DNA of 64,000 bases from Candidatus Shapirobacteria bacterium (GTDB lineage: Bacteria; Patescibacteriota; Microgenomatia; UBA12405), in assembly GCA_028704635.1 (NCBI GenBank), contig JAQWFB010000005.1:26223-90222 (forward strand), given 5' to 3'. The notes beneath the pieces are model-generated. The model was not told where the DNA came from and did not search any database. It saw nothing but the letters and a program-made list of their open reading frames with translations. This document shows positions 8,150 to 22,350 of the stretch, piece by piece; position 1 is the stretch's first letter, and the number at the start of each line of letters is the position of its first letter. A program made the translations under genes and the position numbers.

Positions 8150-9639
8150 TTCTCCAATATTTCTACCTGTCCATTAAACTCTCCAAAAATTCCTTCTTCT
8201 AAAACTAAACTCAAACCATCATCAAACGAAAAACCAGGATTTAATACTTGACCAATTATCCTATCACCCTCTTTAATTACCACTTTATCTTTATCAAAAA
8301 TAAAGTCAATCAATGTTGATTCCTTTGTAATATTTAAAAATGTATTTAAACAGCCAGGTTTTTCAAGAGAATAAATGCGGCCATATTCATCAATCTGTTC
8401 ATTTGTCAAAAAATCTGGATTTTTTATATCATAACCCCAACCTCGAAGATTAGATGTTGTCGCAAATAATTTATTGGAATAAGCAACTAAAGAAGTAACT
8501 CTCTGACCCAAAAAAGCGCTTTCTTCACCTACTAGTTGACCAAGATAAGGGATAAAGGGATCTTCTTCAACAGGATGACTAAACAACCTTGTTGATAAAG
8601 ACCAACTTTTTGACTCATGATCATAAATCATAATTTCACCCCTGGGCCAATAACCAACATATAAATTACCACCATAAATAGCCATCGACTGAGCTTCTCT
8701 ATCAGCATAATCTTTTTCTAAAAAAGGTGATAATAACGAAGGTTTAAAAACTTTTCCATCAAACTCATACAATCTGCCAGTAGGCCATGCACCTATCAAT
8801 GTTTTTCCATCATAATAAATAGAACTATAAAATTGTTTTCCTCTAGGTTTGTCAAGTATTTTTTTTGACAATCCCTCATCACAATAATAATTCTCATTTT
8901 CATGTTCACTCGCCTGACACCAACCCTTTCCGTCAAAAATCAAAATCGATCCATAATTTGTAATAGCAATTACTTTACCATTGTTTTCAGCATAAATATA
9001 AGGCCACGTACCTTTATATATCTCAATGCGAAAACAATCACCTTTATTAAACCGATCTTTACAGGCAACAACAAAATTATTATCCAAACCAAAAATAAAA
9101 CCGTTGGCATAAAATTTATTATCATAATTCATATCATTATTAAGTTGAAATAAATTTTCATCAAGTGACGTGTTAATTTTTAACTTATCATCGTCAAGTT
9201 TATAAACATTTCCATTTGCCATATCCTTAAAAAGGATACAATTTTCTTTTACAAAAGAAAATCCTGTTTTAAATTTTTTTGAAGGCTTACCAATAGTCTT
9301 AAAATTACTTTCCATTTTTTTCGTCAAACCATCCTGTTGTTTAACAAAAAAACTCATTTCTCCAGGTTGATAACCAGAATAAGTATTCCAATAACGTATA
9401 AAACCTGCCGAAGCCACGATATTACCTTGCTTGGTTTTCAAAGAAAAAATAGTTCCAAAAGGAGGAGTATTTTTTTTATCATAAAATATTTTAAAGGATA
9501 ATTTCTGATTAGCAACAACATCTGATTCAAAAAAATTTGATATCTTTGTCGTTTTATTAGACCAATTATTTACCAATAAAAAAATAACACTAATTACCAT
9601 GAATATAAACACGGATATAAATAATTTTTTATATTTCAT
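8146..9639 (-). CDS. Hypothetical exported/membrane-anchored protein with repeated G-x-W-P-x-G aromatic motifs (possible beta-propeller)
   Basis: N-terminal signal anchor (MKYKKLFISVFIFMVISVIFLLV); internal repeats ..YVGYWPRGEIMIYD.., ..IGAWPTGRLYEFD.. Confidence 0.5.
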   Translation of the reverse strand: MKYKKLFISVFIFMVISVIFLLVNNWSNKTTKISNFFESDVVANQKLSFKIFYDKKNTPPFGTIFSLKTKQGNIVASAGFIRYWNTYSGYQPGEMSFFVKQQDGLTKKMESNFKTIGKPSKKFKTGFSFVKENCILFKDMANGNVYKLDDDKLKINTSLDENLFQLNNDMNYDNKFYANGFIFGLDNNFVVACKDRFNKGDCFRIEIYKGTWPYIYAENNGKVIAITNYGSILIFDGKGWCQASEHENENYYCDEGLSKKILDKPRGKQFYSSIYYDGKTLIGAWPTGRLYEFDGKVFKPSLLSPFLEKDYADREAQSMAIYGGNLYVGYWPRGEIMIYDHESKSWSLSTRLFSHPVEEDPFIPYLGQLVGEESAFLGQRVTSLVAYSNKLFATTSNLRGWGYDIKNPDFLTNEQIDEYGRIYSLEKPGCLNTFLNITKESTLIDFIFDKDKVVIKEGDRIIGQVLNPGFSFDDGLSLVLEEGIFGEFNGQVEILEN

Positions 9640-9682
9640 AAAATATGAAATAATTTTAAATAACTTTAATAAACATTTACTG

Positions 9683-10633
9683 TTAACATTTTAAATCCTT
9701 ATTGTATTCCATGTCAAACCACATAGCAAATAACACAAATTGTACACCCATTAAAGAACAGAGCATAAATGCCATAAAATTCATTTTAAACATCTCTCCT
9801 GTCAATATCCATAAATAAATAAATCTAATCAAAAGTACTGTACTGAAAAAAACATTTAAAAAACCAGCAAAATAAAATAAAACTAAAGGATGAAAGTCTC
9901 TAATAATATATTTTTCCTTCATTCTCCAAAAAAACATTTTTAGCATCATTTTAGGTATGGTTAAAAAAACTTTTCCAAGTTTAATTCCAGATTTTTCTCC
10001 AACCCCATAAGTAGGTTCGATTGGGACATCGCAAACTTTTGCATTATAAACATTTAATCTAACCAATAAATCATTTGGCTGCCCATACCTCTTATACATT
10101 TTATCCCAATCAATAAGTTTTAACATTTTACTATTAATTGCCGTATATCCGGTCTGAGAATCCATTATATGCCAATAACCAGAAGCGACCTTAGTACAAA
10201 AAGATAAAATAGAATTTCCTAAATATCTTACTCTGGGTATTTTTTCATAAGCTTCATCAGATAGTAACCTATTCGCCTTTGAATAATCAACTATATTGTC
10301 AACAACTGGATCTAATATTGCCGGTAAATCTTTTGGTAACATTTGTCCATCACCCGCCATAACCACCGCCACATCTATTTTATTATCACGACACCATTTA
10401 TAACCGCTAGCTATTGCTCCACCAACCCCTTCATTAACACTGTGTTTTATTAAAACCACTCGCGTACCCCTTTTTCTCAATAATTCGATCTGAACAACAG
10501 TATTGTCCTTACTTTTATCATCAATAATAATAATTTTGTCTATAAACTTTGGCATTGTTTCAACAACCTTACCAATTTGTTTTCCCTCGTTATAACAAGG
10601 CACAACTACCCCAATTATTTTATTTTTATACAT
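9683..10633 (-). CDS. GT2 polyprenyl-phosphate sugar synthase (GtrB/ArnC/DPM1-like) with C-terminal TM helices
   Basis: VVVPCYNEGKQIGKVVE...IIIDDKSKDNT GT-A fold with DxD; two C-terminal hydrophobic helices. Confidence 0.75.
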   Translation of the reverse strand: MYKNKIIGVVVPCYNEGKQIGKVVETMPKFIDKIIIIDDKSKDNTVVQIELLRKRGTRVVLIKHSVNEGVGGAIASGYKWCRDNKIDVAVVMAGDGQMLPKDLPAILDPVVDNIVDYSKANRLLSDEAYEKIPRVRYLGNSILSFCTKVASGYWHIMDSQTGYTAINSKMLKLIDWDKMYKRYGQPNDLLVRLNVYNAKVCDVPIEPTYGVGEKSGIKLGKVFLTIPKMMLKMFFWRMKEKYIIRDFHPLVLFYFAGFLNVFFSTVLLIRFIYLWILTGEMFKMNFMAFMLCSLMGVQFVLFAMWFDMEYNKDLKC

Positions 10634-11747
10634 ATTTTTTAATTAATTTTACAATGTCAATTATTTTTTTATCATCCAACTCTGCATAAATTGGCAAACT
10701 TAAAACCTCACCACACATTTTCTCTACCACCGGCAAAGATCCTTTTTTAATTTTTAAATATTCAAACGCCTTCAAAAAATGTAGGGGCAGGGGATAATAA
10801 ATCATTGATGAAACATTATTTTCTTCCAAATATTTTTTAAGTTCATCTCTTTTTCCATTTTTAATTTTCAAAGTATATTGATGATAAACATGCTTTGTTT
10901 TTTTGTCTAAATTATATTTTGGAACTTCTATGCTATTAATATCTCCCAATAATTTATTATAAATATCCGCAATATTTTGTCTGCTTTTATTCCACTTATT
11001 TAAATATTTTAATTTAACACTCAAAATTGCAGCTTGAATCCCATCTAGTCGACTACTTACCCCAATTTCATCATTAAAATATTTAATTTTTGAACCGTGA
11101 TTTCTTAACATTTTTATTTTCTCAGCTATTTTTTCATTATTAGTTACCACCATTCCACCATCACCGTAACCATTTAAATTTTTCGATGGAAAAAAACTAA
11201 AACAACCAACATCACCTAACCCACCAACCTTTTTACCGTCATATTCAGCCCCAATCGCTTGGCAGGCATCTTCTATAACAAATAATTTATATTTTTTAGC
11301 TATTTCAAGTATTTTATCCATGTTTGCTGGCAATCCAAATAAATGAACTGGAATTATAGCCTTAGTTTTATTAGTGATTTTTTCTTCAATTAGATTTTCA
11401 TCAATATTAAAAGTATTAGGGTCTATATCAACAAACACTGGTTTGGCGCCTAATCTAGTAATTACCTCAGCTGTGGCAAAAAAAGTAAATGGAGTAGTAA
11501 TTACCTCATCACCCTCTTTTATTCCCAAAGCCCACAAAGCTAAATACAATGCATCAGTACCAGAGTTTAAACCTAAAGCATATTTAGTATCACAATATTC
11601 GGCCATTTCTTTTTCAAATTTTTCAACATAAAAACCCCCAATAAAAGCACTGTCTTTAATTACCGACTCAATTGCTCCATTTATTTCTTTTTTAATTAAT
11701 TTATATTGAGTATATAAATCCACCATCTGTATTTTTTTTGTAATCAT
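10626..11747 (-). CDS. wbpE: DegT-family aminotransferase, WbpE/WlbC-like (UDP-2-acetamido-2-deoxy-3-oxo-glucuronate aminotransferase)
   Basis: DegT family motifs; in operon with WbpA/WbpB/WbpD-like genes. Confidence 0.75.
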   Translation of the reverse strand: MITKKIQMVDLYTQYKLIKKEINGAIESVIKDSAFIGGFYVEKFEKEMAEYCDTKYALGLNSGTDALYLALWALGIKEGDEVITTPFTFFATAEVITRLGAKPVFVDIDPNTFNIDENLIEEKITNKTKAIIPVHLFGLPANMDKILEIAKKYKLFVIEDACQAIGAEYDGKKVGGLGDVGCFSFFPSKNLNGYGDGGMVVTNNEKIAEKIKMLRNHGSKIKYFNDEIGVSSRLDGIQAAILSVKLKYLNKWNKSRQNIADIYNKLLGDINSIEVPKYNLDKKTKHVYHQYTLKIKNGKRDELKKYLEENNVSSMIYYPLPLHFLKAFEYLKIKKGSLPVVEKMCGEVLSLPIYAELDDKKIIDIVKLIKKYV

Positions 11748-12313
11748 TTTATCTCTCTAACAATTAAATCGTTCTTTTCATATTTTCTACCGCATTTTTT
11801 ACACTCGGTCATTTCAAATTCATTTGGCAATTTCTCTCCACATTCACAAATCCAACCTTTTAATTTGGCCGGGTTTCCATAAATGACGGAATAATCCAAA
11901 ACATCTTTTGTCACTACACTTCCAGCCCCAATAAGTGCCCATTTACCAACTTTTATTCCACAAACCACCGTACAATTTGCTCCAAAAGTTACTCCTTCTT
12001 CAACAATTGTTTTTACAAATTGCCTGTTTTTAGGATATTTAGCTCTAGGATTCAAATCATTAGTAAAAGTCATTGATGGACCACAAAATACATTATCAGT
12101 CATAATAACCCCCTCATAGATATTTACATTATTTTGTATTTTACAACCATTTCCAATTTCTCCCGCAATAAAACAATTTTGTCCAACAATACAGTCTTTT
12201 CCAATAATTGCATTACTCATCACATGGCTATTATGCCACACTTTACTTCCATCACCAATTTGAGCTCCCTCATCAATAAATGCACTTTTATGACAAAAAA
12301 AGTCTTGTTTCAT
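11744..12313 (-). CDS. wbpD: Hexapeptide-repeat N-acetyltransferase, WbpD/WlbB-like, with a C-terminal CxxC..CxxC zinc-ribbon extension
   Basis: Left-handed beta-helix hexapeptide repeats; C-terminal ..CECGEKL..ECKKCGRKY..; operon context. Confidence 0.7.
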   Translation of the reverse strand: MKQDFFCHKSAFIDEGAQIGDGSKVWHNSHVMSNAIIGKDCIVGQNCFIAGEIGNGCKIQNNVNIYEGVIMTDNVFCGPSMTFTNDLNPRAKYPKNRQFVKTIVEEGVTFGANCTVVCGIKVGKWALIGAGSVVTKDVLDYSVIYGNPAKLKGWICECGEKLPNEFEMTECKKCGRKYEKNDLIVREIK

Positions 12314-12315
12314 AT

Positions 12316-13596
12316 TTATCTACCAATTCCTTTATAAATAATTCCCATTTTTTTGATTTGATCCCTGTCTAAACAATTTTTTCCATCTACCACAATTTTA
12401 ACCTTAGAGTTGGATAAAATAACAGGTAGACTATTAATAAATTCTTGATGCCCAGTACCAATAATAATTGTTTGCATCCCGTCAATAGCGTCTTCAAGGC
12501 AATTATATTTTCCTTTAATATAAGGATCATATGTTTCTATTAGAATATCTAAAGATTCCAAAATTTCTTTTATCTTCATAGAAGGACTTTCTCTTATGTC
12601 GGCCACATTAGCTTTATAAGTCAAACCTAAAAGAACCACTTTTGTTTTTTTAAGTGGCATATTCAGTTTCTTCATTTCTTTAATTAATTTATCCACAGTA
12701 TATTGAGGCATACCATTATTTATTTCCCGAGCTACTTTTAAAAACCTATGATCAAATCCACTCAAGGCTGCTCTCTTTATTAAATAATAAGGATCAACTG
12801 CAATACAATGACCACCAACCCCACAACCAGGCCAATGCGCCATAAAAGCAAATGGTTTATTAGAAGAGGCCTCAATAGTTTCTTTTAAATCTATCCCCAT
12901 CGCATCAAAAGACATTGCTAATTCATTTACATAAGCAATATTAATATCTCTAAAAGTATTTTCTACAATTTTAGTAGCTTCAGCAACTTTTAAAGAACTC
13001 ACCTCATTTACTTTGGCATCAGTTATAAATGTTCTATAAAACTCAGCTATTTGTTTATTAAATTTTTTATTTATTGATCCTATATTTCGGTTAATATTGT
13101 AAACATTCCATCTTGGATCACCAGGATTTATTCTCTCCGGGCAATGAGCTAAATTTATATCTTTTCCAACTTTGTATTTTGTTAGGCTTTCAATAATAGG
13201 TAATAATCTCTCTTCGCAAGTACCTGGATTTACAGTTGATTCAAGTACAATGTGACAACCCTTTTTAATATATTTACACACCAATTTTATTGCCGATTCC
13301 ACTAAACTATAATCTGGTTCATAATTATCATCAATCGGAGTAGGTACACAAATAATAAAAACATTGGAATCCTTTAAAACAACTTCATCTAAAGACACAT
13401 TTAATTTATTATCTCTAAGGTATAAAGTTACTTCCTTATCGCCAATTGGATTTATTCCTTTCTTAATATCATTTATCTTTTTTTTGTTTAAATCAAATCC
13501 AACTGTTTCGTATAATTTTGTCTTGGCAATGGCCACTAAAGTAGGTAAACCAACATATCCTAACCCTACCACAGCAACTTTTTTAATTTTTTTCAT
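12316..13596 (-). CDS. wbpA: UDP-N-acetyl-D-glucosamine (or mannosamine) 6-dehydrogenase, WbpA/WecC-like
   Basis: N-terminal VAVVGLGYVGLP NAD fold and catalytic Cys region (..GCGVGGHC..) of the UDP-glucose/GDP-mannose dehydrogenase family. Confidence 0.75.
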   Translation of the reverse strand: MKKIKKVAVVGLGYVGLPTLVAIAKTKLYETVGFDLNKKKINDIKKGINPIGDKEVTLYLRDNKLNVSLDEVVLKDSNVFIICVPTPIDDNYEPDYSLVESAIKLVCKYIKKGCHIVLESTVNPGTCEERLLPIIESLTKYKVGKDINLAHCPERINPGDPRWNVYNINRNIGSINKKFNKQIAEFYRTFITDAKVNEVSSLKVAEATKIVENTFRDINIAYVNELAMSFDAMGIDLKETIEASSNKPFAFMAHWPGCGVGGHCIAVDPYYLIKRAALSGFDHRFLKVAREINNGMPQYTVDKLIKEMKKLNMPLKKTKVVLLGLTYKANVADIRESPSMKIKEILESLDILIETYDPYIKGKYNCLEDAIDGMQTIIIGTGHQEFINSLPVILSNSKVKIVVDGKNCLDRDQIKKMGIIYKGIGR

Positions 13597-14719
13597 TATT
13601 TTTTTTATTAACCATTTCTAATGTACTAAATTTATTAAGAGGTAAACTTATTGGTTTTCCTGTAAGAGATGATTTGTAAATTGATAATATTACTTCAAGT
13701 GCTTTTTTTCCTTCTACTCCACTTACTAAAGGCTCTCTACTTTTTCTAATTGCCTCAATCATATCTTTATATAATTCAATATGTCCAAAACCATAAATAT
13801 TAGGTGGTTCTTCCTCGCCGTCAATATTATCATTTTTATCATTATCTTTAAAATTCCACACCTCCACTTTATTTACCGATTTACCACCAATCTTAACTGT
13901 TCCTTTTTCTCCAAAAATACATAAAGTTTCTTCCAAATTTTGAGGGTATACATTTACAGTTCCCTCTATTATTCCAAAACTTCCATTTTTAAATTTAATT
14001 AATCCCACCCCTAAATCTTCACCTTTTATATATGGATGATTGAAATTTTTTGTATAAGCAAATACTTGATCTACTTCGCTATCCATCATCCAAACTAATA
14101 AATCAATATTATGGATACACTGGTTCATCAAAGCACCACCATCATGCTCCCAAGTGCCTCTCCAATTAGCTTGCTTATAATAACTTTCATCCCTGTTCCA
14201 CCTAATATTTGCCACCCCATGGAATAATTTTCCAAATCTATCTTTTTCCAAAGCCTTTCTTAATTTTTGAATCGATTTATTAAATCTGTTCTGGTGCGAC
14301 ACACACAATTTAACTCCTTTTAGTTTGGCCGCCTCAATCATCCTATCGGCGTCTTCTATTGATAACGCCATTGGTTTTTCAACTATTACATTTATTCCTT
14401 TATTAAGACAATCAATTGCAATTGATGCATGAGATCCACTTTCTGTTGCAACTACAACCAAATCTAAATTTTCTTTTTCAATCATTTCCTGATGTGTTTT
14501 ATATATTTTTACTTTTCCAAACAAATCTTCCATTTCACTTTTTTCTAACAATGTTTTAGCATTTTCTACATTTATATCAGCCACACAAACAAATTCTAAT
14601 TCATTTTTATTTTCTATTAAGGCATTTATATGATTCAAAGAAATTCTTCCGCAACCCACCAATCCATACCTCAATTTTCTTTTATTTGCTGATTTCTCCA
14701 TAATGAACCATTCTAACAA
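13583..14719 (-). CDS. wbpB: Gfo/Idh/MocA-family oxidoreductase, WbpB/WlbA-like (UDP-GlcNAcA 3-dehydrogenase)
   Basis: N-terminal LRYGLVGCGRIS.. Rossmann fold of the GFO_IDH_MocA family; first gene of the minus-strand wbp-like operon. Confidence 0.7.
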   Translation of the reverse strand: MLEWFIMEKSANKRKLRYGLVGCGRISLNHINALIENKNELEFVCVADINVENAKTLLEKSEMEDLFGKVKIYKTHQEMIEKENLDLVVVATESGSHASIAIDCLNKGINVIVEKPMALSIEDADRMIEAAKLKGVKLCVSHQNRFNKSIQKLRKALEKDRFGKLFHGVANIRWNRDESYYKQANWRGTWEHDGGALMNQCIHNIDLLVWMMDSEVDQVFAYTKNFNHPYIKGEDLGVGLIKFKNGSFGIIEGTVNVYPQNLEETLCIFGEKGTVKIGGKSVNKVEVWNFKDNDKNDNIDGEEEPPNIYGFGHIELYKDMIEAIRKSREPLVSGVEGKKALEVILSIYKSSLTGKPISLPLNKFSTLEMVNKKNNEKN

Positions 14720-14845
14720 AATTCTATAAAATTTACTAATAAAAAAAGATTTTAAAATAGATTTAATTTTTTTATTTTTATGCTACAATATCCTATAAAA
14801 GTAAAAGCACTTTTAAAAACAAAAGGAAGATGGGGGTTTTAAAAA

Positions 14846-15076
14846 ATGGCCAGCAATGAAAAAAAACTGTTGGGAGAAGAAAAACTCGGCAAAGGTGGTA
14901 GGATTTCTCAAGCACTAAAACCCAAGAAAAAGAAAAGATTTCTTACTCTTGAGGAAATTCACCGAGAAACAAACCTACCTCTAGAAACAGTTGAAAACTA
15001 TGTTTTAAAAGAGCATCCCAATAATTTCATTAAAAAAGTTGTTGGTAATGAAACAAAGTACACTTTAAAAGACTAG
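14846..15076 (+). CDS. Small Lys-rich protein (76 aa) with a possible helix-turn-helix
   Basis: G-rich SD-like element 9 nt upstream; ..LTLEEIHRETNLPLETVENYV.. resembles an HTH; divergent from the wbp-like operon. Confidence 0.4.
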   Translation: MASNEKKLLGEEKLGKGGRISQALKPKKKKRFLTLEEIHRETNLPLETVENYVLKEHPNNFIKKVVGNETKYTLKD

Positions 15077-15104
15077 CCAATAAATAAAAATATCCCTTTT
15101 AATC

Positions 15105-15159
15105 GCCGTCAGGTTTATGTAAACTCATTTGTTTATATATTCCTGCCGGCCTTTTTTTT
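15105..15159 (+). terminator. Candidate intrinsic terminator (GC stem gccgtcagg/cctgccggc with an AT inner stem, then T8)
   Basis: Seen directly; lies 30 nt downstream of the 76-aa ORF. Confidence 0.35.
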
Positions 15160-15212
15160 GTTAAATAAGTCTAAATTTGAACTGAAAGGCCAAATTTTGT
15201 CTATTTATCAAA

Positions 15213-15228
15213 CTCCGATTTATCGGAG
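15213..15228. promoter_or_regulatory. 16-bp palindrome CTCCGAT-TT-ATCGGAG upstream of 15266 gene; candidate operator
   Basis: Perfect 7-bp inverted arms; TATAAT at 15252-15257 only ~8 nt before the ATG, suggesting a leaderless or short-leader mRNA. Confidence 0.3.
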
Positions 15229-15265
15229 TATACTAGCTTTCAATATTTTTATACTATAATCACCT

Positions 15266-16669
15266 ATGAAACATTTGAGATTTTTAATTCCTCTAGCATT
15301 AATTTCACTTTTTATTTTTCTGCGTTTTTACAACATTAAAGACTCTTTATTTTTTTTCAATGACGTTGGAAGAGATTTGTTGGTTTTACAAAATTGGCAA
15401 TTATCAGGCAAACCTCCACTTTTAGGACCACAAACAAGTGTTATCCCTTTTAATCAATCGAGTATTTATTTTTACTATCTTTATATTTTTTATATAATCA
15501 CCAACGGTAGCGTTTTTTCCGCCTTATTTGCTAATGCTTTTTTATATATTGCCATGTATATTTTTGGGTTGATTGTTTTTAAAAAAGACAAAAAAATTAC
15601 CACTATTTTAAATATTTCTTTTTTTCTTATTAGTATTCATCCACAATATATCGCTCAAAGTCGTTTTGTTTGGAATCCATCATTAGTAACTCCATTTATA
15701 ATGTCCTCTTTCTTTTCTTTTTATTTATTAACACAAAAATATTCCAAAATTAGGCTTTGGATTTTCTCTCTTTCAATTGCCGCTGCCATCTCCCTCTCTT
15801 ATTCAGTCATACCTTTATTTATCGCAATATTTATTTATTGGTTAATTTTTTATCAAAAATATTTTTTTAAAATATTTTTTTCTATATTTACCTCTTTTTT
15901 ATTTCTAAACATAACCACTGTTTTTTTTGAACTAAGACACAATTTTTTATTAACCAAAAGTCTTTTATTCAAATCTGCTTCACCCCAATCAGGTATTAGT
16001 ATTAATGAAAAATTTAATGATATTGCCAAATTTGTAATTGATTTGCCAAGTCAAAATATTAACCAATATGTTCTTTTAATTTTTGTATTTTTATCAATTA
16101 TCTTAATAACTAGACAATTTAAAAACAAAAATATTACTTTATTTACTAGTTTTATTTTTCTTCTTACTTTTTTGACCTATTTTATCCTTCCAGTGTCTGC
16201 CCAAGCTCATTATGTGTTTCCCATTATTTGTCTTTTATTTATACTTATTACCAGTCAACCAATAATTAGATCAATAATAATAGTTTTTCTTTTATCCCTA
16301 CTTTATTTAACTCCAGCAAATTTAAATTCGTATTTTCAAAAAGCCCCACGTACATATTCTCAAATGGAACAATGTTTCAAAGAATACTGTCAAAAAAACC
16401 CCGAACCAATAAATGTTTCTGTAAGTTCTTCTTATCATCCTTACCACAACGGTCCAGAACATCGCTATTTATTAAAAAAATCAGGTTGTAATGTTCAAGT
16501 TTTAGAAGACGGTCAAAAAGCAAAAACCATGGCATTGGTATTAGACAACAATACTTTTGATCCAGAAAAATCAAATTTTTATGAATTAAGTCTCTTCGGC
16601 CCTTATCAAACCAGAGACACTTTTAATTGTCTCCCTAATTTCCAAATTTTAAATTTAATTAACAAATAA
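15266..16669 (+). CDS. Polytopic membrane protein, GT-C-like (ArnT-like) with a C-terminal soluble domain
   Basis: About 11 hydrophobic segments followed by a Cys-containing soluble tail; glycan-locus context. Confidence 0.4.
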   Translation: MKHLRFLIPLALISLFIFLRFYNIKDSLFFFNDVGRDLLVLQNWQLSGKPPLLGPQTSVIPFNQSSIYFYYLYIFYIITNGSVFSALFANAFLYIAMYIFGLIVFKKDKKITTILNISFFLISIHPQYIAQSRFVWNPSLVTPFIMSSFFSFYLLTQKYSKIRLWIFSLSIAAAISLSYSVIPLFIAIFIYWLIFYQKYFFKIFFSIFTSFLFLNITTVFFELRHNFLLTKSLLFKSASPQSGISINEKFNDIAKFVIDLPSQNINQYVLLIFVFLSIILITRQFKNKNITLFTSFIFLLTFLTYFILPVSAQAHYVFPIICLLFILITSQPIIRSIIIVFLLSLLYLTPANLNSYFQKAPRTYSQMEQCFKEYCQKNPEPINVSVSSSYHPYHNGPEHRYLLKKSGCNVQVLEDGQKAKTMALVLDNNTFDPEKSNFYELSLFGPYQTRDTFNCLPNFQILNLINK

Positions 16670-16739
16670 TCATATCAATTTACTTGAATAATCATATCAT
16701 TATGATGTGATTTTCGGCTTAATATGATATTATCTATTA

Positions 16740-17789
16740 ATGAATAACTTGAATGGCCGACAGTTAAGAATTCTGGAAATTTTAAAGCCAAAACAACCTA
16801 TCGGCCCTAAGGAAATATTAGAAAAATTGAATCAAAAAGTTTCTATTGTCACTATTTCCCGAGACCTTTCCGAATTAGTTGATTTAAAATATCTTTATAG
16901 AAATGGCAATGGACCAGCAACTCAATATTTTCTTTTAGAAAAAGCTTTATTTTTTAGACCAATTGATTATAAAAAATATTTCGAAATCGAAACAGATAAA
17001 AGAGATATTGTTGAAAATTTTAATATGGAAATTTTTACTCAACTTTCTAAACTCTCAATTTTTACCCCAAAAGAACAAACTCAACTGGAAACACTTGATT
17101 TAAAATTTAGAAAAAATTATTCTCAATTATCACCAACTATAATTAAAAAAGAAATTGAAAGAGTAACTATTGAACTCAGTTGGAAATCTAGCGTTATTGA
17201 AGGAAATACCTATTCTCTTTTAGAAACTGAACGCCTAATTAAAGAAGGTACTGAAACAAAAGGTAAAAAGAAAGAAGAAGCTATTATGCTTTTAAATCAC
17301 AAAAAAGCTTTAGATTTTGTTTTTGAAAATAAAAAACTATTCAAAATGATTAACCGTTCTAAAATTGAACAATTACATAAAATAATTACCCAAGATTTAG
17401 GTATAACTAATAATCTTAGAAAAACTCTGGTAGGAATTACTGGCACCAAATTTAAACCATTAGATAATCAGTTTCAAATTATAGAAGCAATCGACAAATT
17501 CTGTGATTTAATTAATAATACTCAAAATATTTTTACTAAGTCTTTATTTTCAATTATTCTTCTAAGCTATATTCAACCATTTGAAGATGGCAACAAGCGT
17601 ACCAGTCGAATTTTAGGCAATGCTATCCTTATTGCCGACAATAGTTTTCCTTTACCTTTAAGAAGTGTTGATGAAAATCTTTATAAAGAAGCCACTTTGC
17701 TTTTTTATGAACAAAACAATTTAAATTTATTTAAACAAATGTTTTTAGATCAATGCAATTTTTCAGTTGAAAATTATTTTAGAATTTAA
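16740..17789 (+). CDS. Fic/DOC-family protein with an N-terminal winged HTH and a degenerate Fic motif (QPFEDGNKRTSR)
   Basis: Fic core ..SYIQPFEDGNKRTSRILGNAIL.. versus consensus HPFx[DE]GNGRxxR; N-terminal ..LRILEIL..ISRDLSEL.. wHTH. Confidence 0.7.
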   Translation: MNNLNGRQLRILEILKPKQPIGPKEILEKLNQKVSIVTISRDLSELVDLKYLYRNGNGPATQYFLLEKALFFRPIDYKKYFEIETDKRDIVENFNMEIFTQLSKLSIFTPKEQTQLETLDLKFRKNYSQLSPTIIKKEIERVTIELSWKSSVIEGNTYSLLETERLIKEGTETKGKKKEEAIMLLNHKKALDFVFENKKLFKMINRSKIEQLHKIITQDLGITNNLRKTLVGITGTKFKPLDNQFQIIEAIDKFCDLINNTQNIFTKSLFSIILLSYIQPFEDGNKRTSRILGNAILIADNSFPLPLRSVDENLYKEATLLFYEQNNLNLFKQMFLDQCNFSVENYFRI

Positions 17790-17798
17790 TATATCTAT

Positions 17799-19094
17799 AT
17801 GAAAAAAATAGCAGTTATTGGAGTTGGTTATGTTGGATTGGTTACCAGTACTTGTTTTGCTGAACTTGGTAATCAAGTAATTGGTATTGATATTGATCAA
17901 AAAAAAATAGACAACTTAAATAAAGGTATTATCCCAATTTATGAAGAAGGTCTCACTGATTTAGTCAAAAAAAACCGTAAATCAGGTAATTTATTCTTTA
18001 CCACTGATATTACTAAAGCTGTTAAAACTTCTGACATTATTTTCATTGCGGTTGGCACTCCACCAATGGCGGACGGCAGCGTCAATTTGGATTATGTCAA
18101 AAGCGTTGCCGAATCTATTGGCAAAGCCATAAACGGCTATAAAGTAATTATTAATAAATCCACTGTTCCAATTGGCACCGGCAACATCGTAAAAATAATA
18201 ATTTCCAAAAAATATAAAGGTGACTTTGATGTTGTTTCCAATCCAGAATTTTTAAAAGAGGGGACAGCTGTTTCTGATTTTATGAATCCCGACAGAATTG
18301 TGGTTGGAACTGATTCCGTAAAAGCTCAAAAAATTGTCAACGATCTCTATGCTTCCCAAAATTCAACTATTATTAATACCGACATCAAAACCGCTGAATT
18401 AATTAAATATGCTTCCAATGCCTTCTTAGCCACTGAAATTTCCTTCATAAATTCCATCGCTAATATTTGTGAAAAAATTGGTGCTGATGTCACTAAAGTG
18501 TCCGAAGGAATGAAACTCGATCAGCGAATTGGCAAAAAAGCTTTTCTAAACGCCGGTATTGGCTATGGTGGCAGCTGTTTTCCTAAAGATGTTAAGGGGT
18601 TAATTCAAATTGCTCACGAAAATAATGTCCGTTTTAGTATTCTCGATGCTGTCGAAGATACTAATTCCGCTCAAAAACAATCTCTTATTCCAAAAATTCA
18701 ATCTCTTCTTGGTGATGATTTACACGACAAAAACATCACTGTTTGGGGACTAGCTTTCAAACCGAACACCGATGATGTTCGTGAAGCTCCATCTCTAGTT
18801 ATTATTAAACAGCTTCTCGATCGCAACGCCAAAATTACTGTTGTTGATCCCATTGCCACCGAACAAGCCAAACTAATTTTAGGCGACACTGTAATTTATG
18901 AAGAAAATTTAATTAAATCAGTTTCCGGTGCTGATTGTTTAATTATTGCCACAGAATGGGCGGAATTTAAAAATGTTGATTTAAAACAAATTAAAAAAGC
19001 AATGAAAAAAGCCAATATTGTTGATGGTCGTAATATTTTTAATAAAAAAGAAATGAAAGTTTTTGGTTTTAAATATCTTTCTGTTGGTAGATAA
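17799..19094 (+). CDS. ugd: UDP-glucose 6-dehydrogenase
   Basis: MKKIAVIGVGYVGL NAD fold and the ..GYGGSCFPKD.. catalytic Cys motif. Confidence 0.85.
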   Translation: MKKIAVIGVGYVGLVTSTCFAELGNQVIGIDIDQKKIDNLNKGIIPIYEEGLTDLVKKNRKSGNLFFTTDITKAVKTSDIIFIAVGTPPMADGSVNLDYVKSVAESIGKAINGYKVIINKSTVPIGTGNIVKIIISKKYKGDFDVVSNPEFLKEGTAVSDFMNPDRIVVGTDSVKAQKIVNDLYASQNSTIINTDIKTAELIKYASNAFLATEISFINSIANICEKIGADVTKVSEGMKLDQRIGKKAFLNAGIGYGGSCFPKDVKGLIQIAHENNVRFSILDAVEDTNSAQKQSLIPKIQSLLGDDLHDKNITVWGLAFKPNTDDVREAPSLVIIKQLLDRNAKITVVDPIATEQAKLILGDTVIYEENLIKSVSGADCLIIATEWAEFKNVDLKQIKKAMKKANIVDGRNIFNKKEMKVFGFKYLSVGR

Positions 19095-19112
19095 TTTTTA
19101 AATATCCTATAA

Positions 19113-19141
19113 TTGACATTTTCTTCCATTAGATTTAATAT
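19113..19141 (+). promoter_or_regulatory. Sigma70-like promoter TTGACA-17-TAATAT upstream of pgk
   Basis: TTGACA at 19113-19118, 17-nt spacer, TAATAT at 19136-19141; AAGGAAGG SD before the ATG at 19185. Confidence 0.4.
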
Positions 19142-19184
19142 CAGCCAAAGCTCATTAACAATCTAAATAATAAAAAAGGAAGGA

Positions 19185-20252
19185 ATGGTAAACGTGAAAG
19201 AGTTGAGATCGGTCAAAGAAATTCCATTAGCAAATGGAGAGGAGCCGGTTATTTTAAGGCTGGATATGGATGTTCCAAAATCAGACAACAAAAGACTTAA
19301 AAATTCCATTCCAACTCTAGAGTATCTACTCCAAAATGGTTACACCCCCATAGTATTAGGACATAAAAAAAGACCAAAAGGTATCGGTTACGAAGAAGAA
19401 TTCTCTCTTTATCCAGTCTATCTTAGATTTAAGGATATTTTGGAAAAAGAACTTTGTCGGGAAATTAAAAGTACTTTTATAGATGACATAACCGACGAAG
19501 AAAAAATTCAAAAAGCCATTAACGAAAATGAAATCGTTTTCGCCGAAAACATACGTTTCCATAAAAAAGAAAAAAAAGGCGACACTTCTCTTTATTCCGT
19601 CCTACAAAAATTTTGTCAATTCTTCGTTTACGATGCTATTGCTGTTGCTCACAGAGACGAAGCTTCGATTATTCTACACCGGGAAATGGAAACCTTTTAT
19701 GGTTTTAATTTCATGAAAGAATTCGAAGCCATGCAGTCATTAAAAAAACAAAAAGGTCAGTTGGTTATCTTAGGCGGTACAAAAAAAGATAAGTTGGATA
19801 ATTTAGCCAAAATTTCTCAAGAATCATGGAAAGTTTTTATTGGTGGAAAATTATCGATCTTTCGAGAAGAAGTTGAGGAAAAAATTATTCAAGAACTTGG
19901 AGAGATTCCGGATAATATTATTTGGGCAGAATTATCACCAGATGGTTACGATTTAAGTGGTAGTAGTATTACTATCCTTAAAAATTTAATTAAATTAAAA
20001 TTAAAAGTTCCCAAAATTATCATCTGGTGCGGTGCCTTAGGTTGGTTTGAAGAAGGTTATATACATGGAACTAATGAGATTACCAAAGCCATTATCGAAA
20101 GTGATTCTTATGTTGCCATTGGTGGAGGCGATACTGCTGCATCAATAATTGAACTAGGAGGTAAAGACAAAATTGACTTCCTTTGTTCCGCTGGTGGTGC
20201 ATTTTTATTTGCGTTAGCCTTTGGCCCAGAAAACTTACCAGCAGTAGCATAA
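19185..20252 (+). CDS. pgk: Phosphoglycerate kinase (short form, 355 aa)
   Basis: N-terminal ..VILRLDMDVP..IPTLEYLLQNGY..VLGHKKRPKG and C-terminal ..IGGGDTAAS..SAGGAFL.. PGK motifs. Confidence 0.8.
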   Translation: MVNVKELRSVKEIPLANGEEPVILRLDMDVPKSDNKRLKNSIPTLEYLLQNGYTPIVLGHKKRPKGIGYEEEFSLYPVYLRFKDILEKELCREIKSTFIDDITDEEKIQKAINENEIVFAENIRFHKKEKKGDTSLYSVLQKFCQFFVYDAIAVAHRDEASIILHREMETFYGFNFMKEFEAMQSLKKQKGQLVILGGTKKDKLDNLAKISQESWKVFIGGKLSIFREEVEEKIIQELGEIPDNIIWAELSPDGYDLSGSSITILKNLIKLKLKVPKIIIWCGALGWFEEGYIHGTNEITKAIIESDSYVAIGGGDTAASIIELGGKDKIDFLCSAGGAFLFALAFGPENLPAVA

Positions 20253-20283
20253 ATTATTTTAAATTTAGAGTATAATTTTTTTA

Positions 20284-20300
20284 TCAACTAATTTAGTTGA
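20284..20300. promoter_or_regulatory. 17-bp perfect dyad TCAACTA-ATT-TAGTTGA just after pgk; candidate protein-binding site
   Basis: Seen directly; overlaps a TTGACA hexamer at 20297-20302. Confidence 0.3.
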
Positions 20301-20555
20301 CAAGTTCCTTAAATTTAAAAGAAAGTGAGGTTGTTTAAAAATGTTAAAACTTCTGATAGAAGATAATCTTCACACAGATCATTTTAATGATGAAAGGAGA
20401 TGATCCAATATCTACACACATCAAATAATGATGGTGTTAATCAAGAAGGGAAGCGATAAAACAATTTTTAAAACAAACCTCTCTCATTTTTTACCAAAAA
20501 TCAAACTCAAGTTTTAAAAAGCAACTTGAAAGTTGAATATCGGTATTTTTTTATA

Positions 20556-20609
20556 GGGCCTGGCTCAGTTTTTTGCATTATGCAAATATTACTGATCTAG
20601 GCCTTTTTT
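20556..20609 (+). terminator. Structured element E1: stem GGGCCTGGCTCAG/CTGATCTAGGCC around the palindrome TTTGCAT-TA-ATGCAAA, then T6
   Basis: Seen directly; looks like an intrinsic terminator in + orientation ~300 nt beyond the pgk stop. Confidence 0.4.
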
Positions 20610-21053
20610 GTTACTTGTTTTTATTTTAATAATATTTTATTATATAAACATATTCAGCCAGTCTGAAATAGATTTTTTTAAAAGCAAAAAAATCTGCACA
20701 TGTACAATCAGTTCTTTATTTAATTTGAAAGGAGGTATCTATTTGGTGGTAATAATATCGTCAAGTCCTTTCTTTTCAAGCCACATCAACCAAAAAGAAA
20801 TTATTCCTGGTATCCGTGGACCCACTTCATAATTTAATTTTTAGTTGTTAGTATTTTGACAATGGGAGGTGTATTGTTTGAGAGTAGTAATGATTAATAT
20901 CCTTACCATTAAAGCAGCAGGCGGTCTTACCCTGAAATAATTGGAATGCGGCCGGTACCAATACCGAGGAAATTATTAAACAATTAAATTTCATTTACAT
21001 TCTTTTCTTTTCAAAAAAAACATACCAATAAAGAACAAAGTTGTTTCACTACC

Positions 21054-21107
21054 GAGCCTGGCTCAGTTTTTTTTTGCATTTTATGCAAACAAGACTGATT
21101 CAGGCTC
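21054..21107. terminator. Structured element E2, a paralogue of E1: GAGCCTGGCTCAG...TTTGCAT-TTT-ATGCAAA...CTGATTCAGGCTC; possible bidirectional terminator
   Basis: 3' arm overlaps the stop codon of the minus-strand flippase; followed by a T-rich tract on the + strand. Confidence 0.35.
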
Positions 21108-22350
21108 CTTTAATTTTTAAACCCAAAACCATTACTCCTAATATCACCAACTCACTAATTATCAAACTCCAACCAGCCTGAACAAATCCAAACTTTGGAA
21201 TCAAAAAATAATTTATTATCAAATCCACCAACGTCCCAATTAAAACCGACCAAAAAACAATTTTTTGTTTTTTCTCAATCACCAACAAGTTTCCAACAAA
21301 CACCCTAAAATAATTAATTACTCCCGACCAAACTAATAAGCTCATCACTCCAGCCGATATAATAAATGATGGTCCGTAAATTAATTTCATAATTAATTCC
21401 CTTTGCCAAGTTATTAACATTGCTAATGGAATTAATCCTAAAAGCGATAATCCAATCACCAATTTAATTAATTTTTTAACCGTTTCTTTTTTATTTTCAT
21501 GAATTAGAACCGTAATTCTTGGAAAAATAGCATAATTAATTACATTCACACTTTGAAAAGCAAAAAGAATTTTAAAAGCTGTCTGATACCACCCAACTTG
21601 ATCATTACCAAAATATCGGCCAATTAATAAAGTATCATTATTGGCATAAATTATCGTTGCCGCTGTCATTCCAAAAAGAGGCAATGCTTCCTTTATTAAT
21701 TCCTTCCAAAAATCAAAATCAAAAGCCATTTTAATTTTTATTTTTAATAAATTCATTTGCCAAATTCCCAAAATTATAGAGAATATTGTTGTTACCATAT
21801 AACCTAAAACCAAATGAACCGCAGTTCCATGAAAACTAATAATTAATAATGCTGTTATTAAAGTTCCAATATAAAAAACCATTCTATTAAAAAAAACCAT
21901 TTCCATTTTTTCCCAAGCCTGAAAAATTGAAATAAAAACTCCCTGAAAAACTTGAATTAAACTAAAAATTAAAGTTATCCACAACAACTGCATTGAAACC
22001 GGATTACGAATAAATAAAAAGGAAAAAACAAATAATATTCCAATCAAAATTGACAATATTAACTTTAATCCCATTAAATTACTCAAATATTTTTCTGTCA
22101 AATTTTTATGTTTTGCCACTTCACGAGTAGTAATCGTCGTCAATCCGAAATCAGACAAAATCATAAATATGGCAATATAGGCAAAAGACAAATTAAATGA
22201 CCCAAACTCATTAGCTCCCCAATATCTAACCAAACCAACCGTCACCACAAACATCAATATCTTAGAAAAAAACTCAACCGCCCCCAACCAAAAAGTATTC
22301 TTGATTAATAATTGTCTATTCGACAATTCCTCATTATTATTAAAAAGCAT
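21100..22350 (-). CDS. Wzx-like polysaccharide flippase (MOP superfamily)
   Basis: Polytopic membrane protein of typical length; context. Confidence 0.7.
   Translation of the reverse strand: MLFNNNEELSNRQLLIKNTFWLGAVEFFSKILMFVVTVGLVRYWGANEFGSFNLSFAYIAIFMILSDFGLTTITTREVAKHKNLTEKYLSNLMGLKLILSILIGILFVFSFLFIRNPVSMQLLWITLIFSLIQVFQGVFISIFQAWEKMEMVFFNRMVFYIGTLITALLIISFHGTAVHLVLGYMVTTIFSIILGIWQMNLLKIKIKMAFDFDFWKELIKEALPLFGMTAATIIYANNDTLLIGRYFGNDQVGWYQTAFKILFAFQSVNVINYAIFPRITVLIHENKKETVKKLIKLVIGLSLLGLIPLAMLITWQRELIMKLIYGPSFIISAGVMSLLVWSGVINYFRVFVGNLLVIEKKQKIVFWSVLIGTLVDLIINYFLIPKFGFVQAGWSLIISELVILGVMVLGLKIKGA

Follow-up and report, generated by a model that had tools for sequence, protein, structure and literature searches.

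Several regulatory RNA devices are built around a ribosome-binding site that is hidden in a helix. In erm- and cat-type translational attenuation, a leader peptide open reading frame (ORF) precedes a second, sequestered Shine–Dalgarno sequence (SD2), which is freed by translating or stalled ribosomes. In RNA thermometers of the fourU and ROSE types, the Shine–Dalgarno (SD) sequence is paired to a U-rich strand via A-U and G.U pairs in a metastable helix. The STAB-SD of Bacillus thuringiensis cryIIIA, an SD-like sequence (GAAAGGAGG...) in the 5′ untranslated region (UTR), blocks 5′ decay of the downstream coding sequence (CDS), as summarized in a later article (Agaisse and Lereclus, 1996, in PMC5737220). 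Regulatory UTRs also include the long 3′ UTR of Staphylococcus aureus icaR (PMC3868564) and the 5′/3′-UTR interaction of Bacillus subtilis hbs (PMC5737220). Here we describe an RNA element directly downstream of the phosphoglycerate kinase gene pgk in a 64,000-nucleotide (nt) stretch (hereafter the window) of a Candidatus Shapirobacteria bacterium (GCA_028704635.1, contig JAQWFB010000005.1, positions 26,223 to 90,222). Judging from sequence comparison, positions 20283–20609 appear to constitute a real, conserved and folded RNA element that is absent from Rfam and belongs to a narrow clade. We give an even chance to the reading that this element (~300 nt) serves as a structured 3′ trailer of the pgk mRNA that responds to ribosomes, or as a small RNA (sRNA) made from it, with the hairpin E1 as its terminator, and that the spacer behind pgk has been split by an insertion.

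The same neighbourhood (UGD, pgk and spacer, converging on a flippase gene) was recovered from seven other assemblies via close homologues of PGK and the flippase: a 97%-identical strain (L004), L006, L015, L005, L007, L016 and L008 (identical to L012). The part of the window from 9185 to 21854 (L001) is identical to a contig of GCA_028681165.1; matches also stem from the public samples SRR22315505 and JGI 3300037067, 3300014204 and 3300027419. In the relatives, UGD, pgk and the element are followed by one E-type hairpin only, which directly adjoins the stop codon of the convergent flippase gene, and the spacers measure ~190–350 bp. The element exists in two variants, a short type (L005, L007, L016 and L008) and a long type (the window, L004, L006 and L015) with an extra 14–17-nt insertion and a ~92-nt 3′ extension. 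Both types share SD1, a mini-ORF, AAGATWATCTTC, GAAAGGAGNTGATCC, the hairpin ACAC-A-CAYYA/TRRTG-GTGT, the purine box AAGAARGGAAG and the terminator. The features of pgk and of the element are as follows, with pairings taken from predicted folds (MFE, minimum free energy).

19113–19141, plus strand: sigma-70-type promoter of pgk, TTGACA-17-TAATAT, predicted by consensus scan (10/12 matches).
19185–20252, plus strand: pgk CDS (Pfam PGK, 3.7e-53).
20271–20276, plus strand: −10-like hexamer TATAAT, separated by 6 nt from the dyad that follows; could belong to a promoter of the element's own, weak and with no −35.
20283–20300, no strand assigned: dyad ATCAAC-N6-GTTGA after a T-run; arms invariant, loop varying.
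20321–20330, plus strand: SD1 (GAAAGTGAGG), 8–10 nt ahead of the mini-ORF ATG; purine block and spacing kept in 7/7 distinct sequences.
20341–20403, plus strand: mini-ORF1, 20 codons (MLKLLIEDNLHTDHFNDERR); its TGA sits inside SD2.
20362–20371, plus strand: 5′ strand of helix H2 (GATAATCTTC), an anti-SD look-alike (compare 16S GAUCACCUCC) that pairs with 20396–20405.
20377–20385, plus strand: alternative anti-SD strand GATCATTTT (GAUCAUUUU), long type only; pairs with SD2 in the MFE structure of the window.
20392–20406, plus strand: SD2 (GAAAGGAGaTGATCC), complementary to the 16S rRNA 3′ tail except at one position; also the 3′ strand of H2; single copy in the window.
20414–20437, plus strand: hairpin H3, ACAC-A-CATCA/TGATG-GTGT; two pairs changed on both sides (UA/CG, CG/UA), 97% of cells paired.
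20443–20453, plus strand: purine box AAGAAGGGAAG; forms helix P1 with CUUC(C) just past the ATG and closes the H2/H3 junction.
20460–20485, plus strand: 3′ half of a ~25-bp long-range helix whose other strand, 20321–20346, includes the SD1 and ATG that it hides; confined to the long type and predicted by MFE for the window, L006 and L015.
20556–20609, plus strand: E1, stem-loop at 20556–20603 plus T6 at 20604–20609; −25.6 kcal/mol, z −5.4.

Conservation of the element was measured against the 4-fold sites of the adjacent UGD gene, which served as a neutral yardstick and are 54–73% identical. A 64-nt core is 85–95% identical among the relatives, and the internal variable segments are ~25% identical. 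Compared with L015, identity rises from ~57% in pgk to 90–97% directly past the stop codon, and the element sequence is more conserved than the CDS upstream of it. The core of L008 folds at −37.8 kcal/mol (z −3.95) on the plus strand and at −25.4 kcal/mol (z −0.42) on the minus strand, which indicates that the predicted fold is specific to the plus strand. An initial annotation of this DNA had proposed a candidate noncoding RNA on the plus strand of the spacer and had named conservation in relatives as a check; the conserved, strand-specific fold agrees with that proposal, and the part of the spacer next to pgk is indeed conserved across the relatives. The mini-ORF at 20341–20403, the 16S-tail complement at 20392–20406 and the internal helices are features that it did not contain.

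The suggested search for known RNA families returned nothing: Rfam 15 gave 0 matches at the gathering threshold across the whole window. With E<=10, searches of 1.2 kb, of 351 nt and of the L008 copy gave chance matches only (8–18 bits versus thresholds of 36–208), and no RNA thermometer family was among the matches of the spacer or element. Known families (tmRNA, RNase P, SRP, 6S, riboswitches, T-box, thermometers and sRNAs) were thus set aside, none reaching its gathering score, and ARAGORN found 0 tRNA or tmRNA genes in the window.

The mini-ORF is open from ATG to TGA in all relatives, with 17, 20 or 21 codons, and stays so through compensating frame-shifting indels; in the long type the other two frames carry 3–4 stops across the same region. 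Its peptide is not conserved, because the reading frame of AAGATWATCTTC differs between the two variants. Selection, if it acts here at all, would be on ribosome passage rather than on the peptide product. SD2 lies 140 nt downstream of the pgk stop codon. Its conserved form, GAAAGGAGNTGATCC, is what we take to be the reverse complement of the canonical bacterial 16S rRNA 3′ terminus (the textbook sequence, the organism's own rRNA lying outside the window). The match is exact over 16–17 nt in L008, L007 and L016 and has one mismatch in the window; other exact matches to the 16S-tail complement span 8–10 nt in the window and, in the remaining loci, no more than 9 nt. No conserved ORF was found past SD2, non-canonical AUC starts included, only frames of 9–19 amino acids (aa) that shift between variants and then the terminator.

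RNAalifold and single-sequence folds agree on a three-helix junction formed by P1, H2 and H3, and the same junction appears in five independent MFE folds; P1 is present in those of L008, L005, L015, L006 and the window. In total, pairing holds in 95.4% of cells, versus 34–64% when the partners are slid by 1–3 columns. In H2, GAUWAUCUUC is predicted to pair with GGAGNUGAUC; over 8 sequences, 94% of its cells are paired. Pairing survives the one-sided changes, which comprise U-A to U.G and, in L006, a CU/UC swap. H2 has up to three G.U pairs. Its look-alike strand equals the 16S tail with three C-to-U changes and therefore forms wobbles, so that the real 16S tail would pair with SD2 more strongly than the mimic does. 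The long type adds the second anti-SD strand, whose TCATTTT is kept in 4/4 long-type sequences, and the segment at 20460–20485, which is absent from L005, L007, L016 and L008.

These features suggest the following mechanism. The mini-ORF, led by its own SD, would run through P1 and H2 and stop inside SD2. H2 would lock SD2 onto the anti-SD look-alike, with wobble pairs weakening the helix. Because the real 16S tail pairs better with SD2 than the wobble mimic, ribosome traffic on the mini-ORF or a free 30S subunit on SD2 could open H2 and P1, and the opened switch might then set the fate of the pgk transcript, namely its stability, 3′ processing or read-through. In the long variant, a second competing anti-SD strand and the ~25-bp helix that buries SD1 and the ATG would be added to this scheme. 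A more specific version, which we regard as distinctly doubtful, is that the element is a sensor of 30S availability: the complement of the entire free 16S tail would lie in a weakened helix opposite a degraded (C-to-U) copy of the tail, and free 30S subunits or ribosomes finishing the mini-ORF would displace the mimic and refold the RNA.

Among the described systems, the element is, on this analysis, most like an erm/cat-type attenuator. Similar to those, it has an SD-led ORF of 17–21 codons with a coding segment predicted to pair with a second, stronger SD. It differs in that no regulated gene or conserved start codon follows SD2, the leader peptide is not conserved, and the whole lies at the 3′ end of a gene and runs into a terminator; it thus lacks the defining feature of such attenuators, a regulated gene after SD2. 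Like STAB-SD, the 16S-tail complement of the element is not used for a protein start and could tether 30S subunits and protect the RNA. Unlike STAB-SD, it is downstream of the CDS, longer (15–17 nt) and placed in an internal helix, and SD2 would be 5′-proximal only if the element is a separate or processed RNA. With icaR and hbs it shares a long conserved 3′ trailer with SD-related motifs that could act on the same mRNA; in a comparison by sequence alone, it differs in that the window has no complementarity to the pgk ribosome-binding site and that the dominant motif is SD-like, not anti-SD-like. The pairing of SD2 to a U-rich strand by A-U and G.U pairs recalls the fourU/ROSE thermometers, although no start codon or gene lies behind the SD and the family signature is absent.

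The pgk gene has a promoter of its own, which is kept in the relatives as TTGAC[A/T]-17-TAA[T/C]AT. Given this promoter, the lack of an intervening terminator and the L008 locus, where the element begins 5 nt past the pgk stop codon, the element is read as the 3′ trailer of the pgk mRNA; the L008 spacing leaves no room for a separate promoter between the two. Transcripts had been proposed to start beyond pgk, which they need not do, and co-transcription with pgk appears at least as likely as a separate start there. The TATAAT (20271) and TTGACA (20297) offered as promoter parts are both present; TATAAT comes first, so that the two cannot serve as a −35/−10 pair on the plus strand, and in the relatives TTGATA replaces TTGACA. 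The proposed 17-bp dyad at 20284–20300 is likewise present, with arms invariant across the loci that have it; the window, its two duplicate contigs and six relatives each carry a single copy, and L008 is not among the matches listed. A NANNAT hexamer stands at the same offset in relatives (TACAAT in L006 and L010, CATGAT in L005, L007 and L016, TATAAT in L015). The dyad has no U-tail on either strand and so is not a terminator; a role as a −35 element was rejected because its spacing to any −10 is not conserved.

A candidate pairing joins the pgk 5′ UTR (window 19148–19184; CUC[A/G]UU[A/G]ACA) to 20435–20441 in the element core (UGUUAA[U/C]). The purine and pyrimidine positions of this 7-bp pairing are A-U, G-C or G.U in 8/8 sequences, and the pairing is AU-rich and weak. 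Pyrimidine tracts in the 3′ extension of the long type are complementary to the pgk ribosome-binding site over 8 bp in L006 (CCUCUCUC with GAGAGAGG) and 7 bp in L015 (CCCCUUA with UAAGGGG); the window's own complementarity to that site is only 6/8, with two A.C mismatches.

The spacer between pgk and the flippase gene is 847 bp long and is the largest noncoding gap in the window, where the median gap is 1 bp and ~90% of the sequence is coding by a crude ORF tiling; two seemingly larger gaps in that tiling are artefacts. The initial annotation of a tightly packed genome with a convergent spacer of ~850 bp and no convincing ORF is therefore accurate. No long ORF was found in the spacer under code 11, nor with TGA read through. 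UGA is read as sense in some lineages of the candidate phyla radiation (CPR); here TGA terminates 10/56 long ORFs in the window, so the genetic code is standard, and an alternative code concealing a gene in the spacer was rejected on this count and on the lack of a long frame after readthrough. The spacer appears to be a composite of the conserved element (20283–20609), an insertion (20610–21053) and E2 as a second terminator copy. Its remaining features and the convergent gene are the following.

20610–21053, no strand assigned: lineage-specific insertion, absent from L005, L006, L007, L008, L015 and L016.
20743–20832, plus strand: 29-aa ORF behind GAAAGGAGGT, in the insertion; no relatives for comparison.
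20878–20940, plus strand: 20-aa ORF behind GGGAGG, in the insertion; no comparative evidence.
21054–21107, plus strand: E2, with its 3′ arm overlapping the flippase stop codon (21100–21102); −28.6 kcal/mol, z −8.4.
21100–22350, minus strand: CDS of a Wzx-type flippase (Pfam Polysacc_synt, 5.7e-33).

E1 (20556–20609) and E2 (21054–21107) had been described as paralogous hairpins in the same orientation, and their coordinates, shared motifs and folding scores bear this out. Both contain GCCTGGCTCAG and TTTGCAT-n-ATGCAAA, each of which occurs exactly twice in the 64 kb (expected 0.08 and 0.04). E1 is followed by T6 and E2 by CTTTAATTTT; as RNA, the U-tract is U6 in E1, UUUUUUAUUU in the short-type orthologues and the weaker CUUUAAUUUU in E2, and the minus strand has no U-tract. 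Folding energies of the orthologous hairpins in the relatives range from −24 to −31 kcal/mol; owing to G.U pairs, the plus strand of E1, E2 and most relatives folds more stably than the minus strand, in keeping with the proposal of plus-strand terminators. A simple terminator scanner missed both hairpins, its loop limit being 3–8 nt. E1, E2 and their orthologues resemble intrinsic terminators in their stable stem-loop, G+C-rich base, 3′ U-tract and terminal place in a transcription unit, and from sequence E1 and E2 would qualify as such. They differ from typical ones in their unusual length (~20 bp with internal loops), in the overlap of the E2 3′ arm with the convergent flippase stop, in the duplication around an insertion and in the interrupted U-tract of E2.

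Hairpins of this type are confined to this locus in 167 kb (the 64-kb window plus 103 kb of relatives): two here, one per relative and none in the outgroup loci. The exact pattern had no match in the genome-contig or viral-contig collections, the source genome evidently not being among the genome contigs. The suggestion that the hairpins might be a common repeat was thus not borne out in these 167 kb, and a dispersed repeat of the repetitive extragenic palindromic (REP) or miniature inverted-repeat transposable element (MITE) kind was rejected, since both copies within 64 kb lie in the spacer. Nor do E1 and E2 seem to end two paralogous transcripts: the regions ahead of the two hairpins are not related to each other, and each relative has one hairpin only. 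In comparisons with L006 and L015 flanks, the 5′ half and 5′ flank of E1 are orthologous to the single hairpin of the relatives, and so are the 3′ half and 3′ flank of E2. The simplest history would be that one terminator was split and duplicated by an insertion in this lineage and that E1 and E2 both descend from it; it is taken as a gain because one gain suffices, whereas the reverse course would need >=2 losses. The two-hairpin picture could result from Campbell-type recombination with DNA that has a similar hairpin.

The start of the insertion is present in L004 as far as that contig reaches. No similarity was found between the insertion and the element, the rest of the window, related loci, phage or plasmid records (blastn) or viral contigs (k-mer), the covariance model of the core had no match in it, and it has no significant fold on either strand. 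Its longest frame, a 74-aa ORF that encloses the 29-aa ORF, gave by phmmer against 1.8 billion representatives only a 6-stretch match of low complexity, and none in Pfam. Phage, plasmid or viral DNA and a pseudogene were rejected, no credible match being given by blastn, viral k-mers, phmmer or Pfam, and so was a tandem duplication of a noncoding RNA with its terminator, the insert and the regions upstream of E1 and E2 having no similarity beyond chance. The SD-led tiny ORFs reported earlier at 20743 (29 aa) and ~20869 (20 aa) do exist; they lie in the strain-specific insertion and have no conservation support. At 20727–20736, GAAAGGAGGT is the longest exact 16S-tail-complement match (10 nt) in the window, and its stem partner TCCTTTC, 32 nt downstream, echoes the SD-sequestering theme of the element; the overall similarity is not significant. 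A by-eye resemblance (GAAAGGAGGT..ATCTA..GGTGGT at 20727) was also not significant and was dropped.

The genes around the element differ strongly in their divergence. Between the window and its relatives, pgk is 54–60% identical in amino acids and 67–73% in nucleotides, whereas its flanking genes are 90–95% identical in amino acids in the same relatives; UGD, the UGD-pgk intergenic promoter region, the downstream element and the flippase gene have 83–97% nucleotide identity. The C-terminal 194 aa of the flippase are 90–92% identical in relatives, and a full-length search gave 83–92% for the closest matches. Synonymous divergence (dS) is 1.1–2.4 for pgk and 0.4–0.8 for UGD, and the ratio of nonsynonymous to synonymous divergence (dN/dS) is 0.15–0.3 and ~0.05, respectively. 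By these comparisons, pgk appears to be a divergence island between conserved noncoding flanks, which suggests either that old pgk alleles have been exchanged by recombination via the conserved flanks or that diversifying selection acts on a glycolytic enzyme within a surface-polysaccharide locus. In L016 (4513–4560), pgk ends ~10 codons early compared with the near-identical L007, with the ending AAAHSYLP*, and the sequence downstream of the early stop still encodes the conserved ...NGPENLPAVS in another frame; a frameshift or assembly error is probable.

In the outgroup L017, a more distant member of the Shapirobacteria with a 77%-identical flippase, UGD and the flippase gene converge 3 bp apart (L017 5230–5234) with no pgk, element or hairpin between them, so that the narrow clade has a module of its own, made up of pgk, the element behind it and the hairpin. 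The pgk of the outgroup genome is part of an rpiB-pgk-gap operon (L013 1158–3697), and the canonical pgk-gap intergenic region of more distant Shapirobacteria shows no relation to the element. The flippase-adjacent pgk would therefore be a relocated or additional copy peculiar to this clade. A PGK-anchored locus search in the genome contig collection found only one unrelated Phycisphaeraceae locus, and a core-pattern scan of metagenomes found one true locus, identical to L008, and one false positive. L006 (1403–2404) has an extra gene with a Bro-N domain between UGD and the pgk promoter region, flanked by TTAAATAT/TTAATAT. Bro-N domains are mainly known from phage-related proteins, and given this gene insertion the locus is regarded as an insertion hotspot. 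In the genes of 9185–21854 and three downstream genes to 24324, Pfam identified sugar-modifying and other biosynthetic enzymes, Fic, PGK, the flippase and an LPG-synthase-type membrane protein; two products had no match.

The main rival to a pgk trailer, in our view a somewhat unlikely one, is an independent trans-acting sRNA of ~320 nt that would start from its own −10 (TATAAT, 20271), carry the dyad as a 5′ hairpin, and titrate 30S subunits or pyrimidine-rich regulators with its purine boxes and an exposed or switchable 16S-tail complement. A −10-like hexamer (TATAAT, TACAAT or CATGAT) does precede ATCAAC by 5–6 nt in all dyad-bearing loci, the dyad would form a 5′ stem-loop, and the element is single-copy, highly conserved and has its own terminator. 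The window, however, lacks a −35 or an extended −10; such hexamers are common at 30% GC, a scan giving 16 promoter-like sites versus 17 expected, and L008, where the element all but abuts pgk, lacks the dyad; nor does any terminator separate pgk from the element. That the locus instead holds two tiny protein genes, ORF1 (20341–20403) and an overlapping ORF2 coupled through NTGA, with functional peptides, is very unlikely. SD1 and the ATG are conserved, ORF1 is always open, the peptides are similar within each variant, and the variable base N of GGAGNTGA (A, T or G) always yields a start codon that overlaps the stop. Yet the frame in which AAGATWATCTTC is read changes between the variants, ORF2 switches frame too (9–19 aa, unrelated), Pfam found nothing for the ORFs tested, and the aligned sequences show no third-position bias by eye, a judgement not counted by a tool. 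A functionless relic, that is, the leader or attenuator of a gene that formerly followed pgk, with apparent conservation due to close genomes or to recombination homogenising the pgk flanks, seems quite unlikely. Its architecture, SD1 with a leader ORF and a sequestered SD2, is indeed that of a translational attenuator with no target gene, and the flanks of the pgk island are uniformly 83–97% identical, as would be expected of recombination anchors; but blocks of 85–97% alternate with ~25% segments inside the element, nearby 4-fold sites are at 54–73%, and the core, the helices and the open frame are all retained in two variants of different structure.

The hairpins themselves might be recombination sites or the ends of a small mobile element (cassette-, attC-, REP- or MITE-like), the 498-bp unit being a mobile cassette, which we consider clearly improbable. 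Two imperfect hairpins in the same orientation do surround a foreign 444 bp, the empty site of the relatives keeps one chimeric-looking hairpin, and the locus has also acquired the Bro-N gene in L006. This is countered by the lack of further copies in 167 kb and of exact-pattern matches in the genome or viral collections, by the absence of GTTRRRY/RYYYAAC cores (the flanks are TATAGGGCC... and ...GGCCTTTTTTGTTACT, and GTTACTT is unfit for GTTRRRY), by symmetric 1x1 mismatches rather than extrahelical bases in the fold, and by the absence of integrase, transposase or recombinase domains in the Pfam calls for 9185–21854 plus the three genes to 24324; a plain terminator would account for the U-tail and for a place where a transcription unit ends. 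Extremely improbable is a functional minus strand, on which a read-through RNA of the flippase operon, with GGAUCA(C/U)CUCCUUUC after the hairpin, would mimic the 3′ minor domain of 16S rRNA. L008 reads hairpin, 8 nt and GGAUCACCUCCUUUC on that strand, and the E hairpin has no U-tail there, so that flippase transcripts could read through. However, shuffled sequences fold as well as the minus strand does (z −0.42; plus strand, −3.95), H2 would have three C.A mismatches, and SD1, the ATG and the open ORF are all plus-strand features.

Several points also weigh against the ribosome-responsive trailer that we favour. The next gene after SD2 is convergent, so that no gene stands behind SD2 and the switch has no obvious output, and inspection found no antiterminator alternative to E1. 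The covariation analysis that had been proposed gave a mixed outcome: it found two covarying pairs, ~2 events in one helix (H3), H2 is almost invariant, so that covariation neither supports nor refutes it, and the register of P1 differs between the two variants, so that its covariation is not scorable. The chance of the frame always being open is roughly ~0.01, a post hoc statistic. The element is represented by 7 distinct sequences from one narrow clade, the −10-like hexamer at a fixed offset ahead of the dyad fits an independent sRNA equally well, and only parsimony decides whether the 444 bp were gained here or lost elsewhere. The anatomy, the conservation, the strand, the orthology of the hairpins and the open mini-ORF are observed; the 5′ end of the transcript, its transcription, termination at E1, translation of the mini-ORF and the switch itself are what we infer from them.

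Given that no Rfam match was found in the window and that a literature search found no study on structured RNAs of CPR bacteria, the regulatory RNAs of these bacteria appear largely uncharted. The comparison presented here documents the duplication of a terminator around an insertion, and the locus offers a concrete, testable candidate in which an SD-led mini-ORF is combined with a 16S-tail complement of exceptional length, placed in a wobble helix. If it is merely a structured 3′ UTR with a terminator, it would be ordinary. If the sensor reading is true, the fate of a glycolytic mRNA, or antisense read-through into a surface-polysaccharide operon, would be coupled to translational capacity in a minimal-genome CPR bacterium. 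If the switch is real, it would be an RNA device at a 3′ location that responds to ribosomes, in an organism whose conventional regulators are very few.

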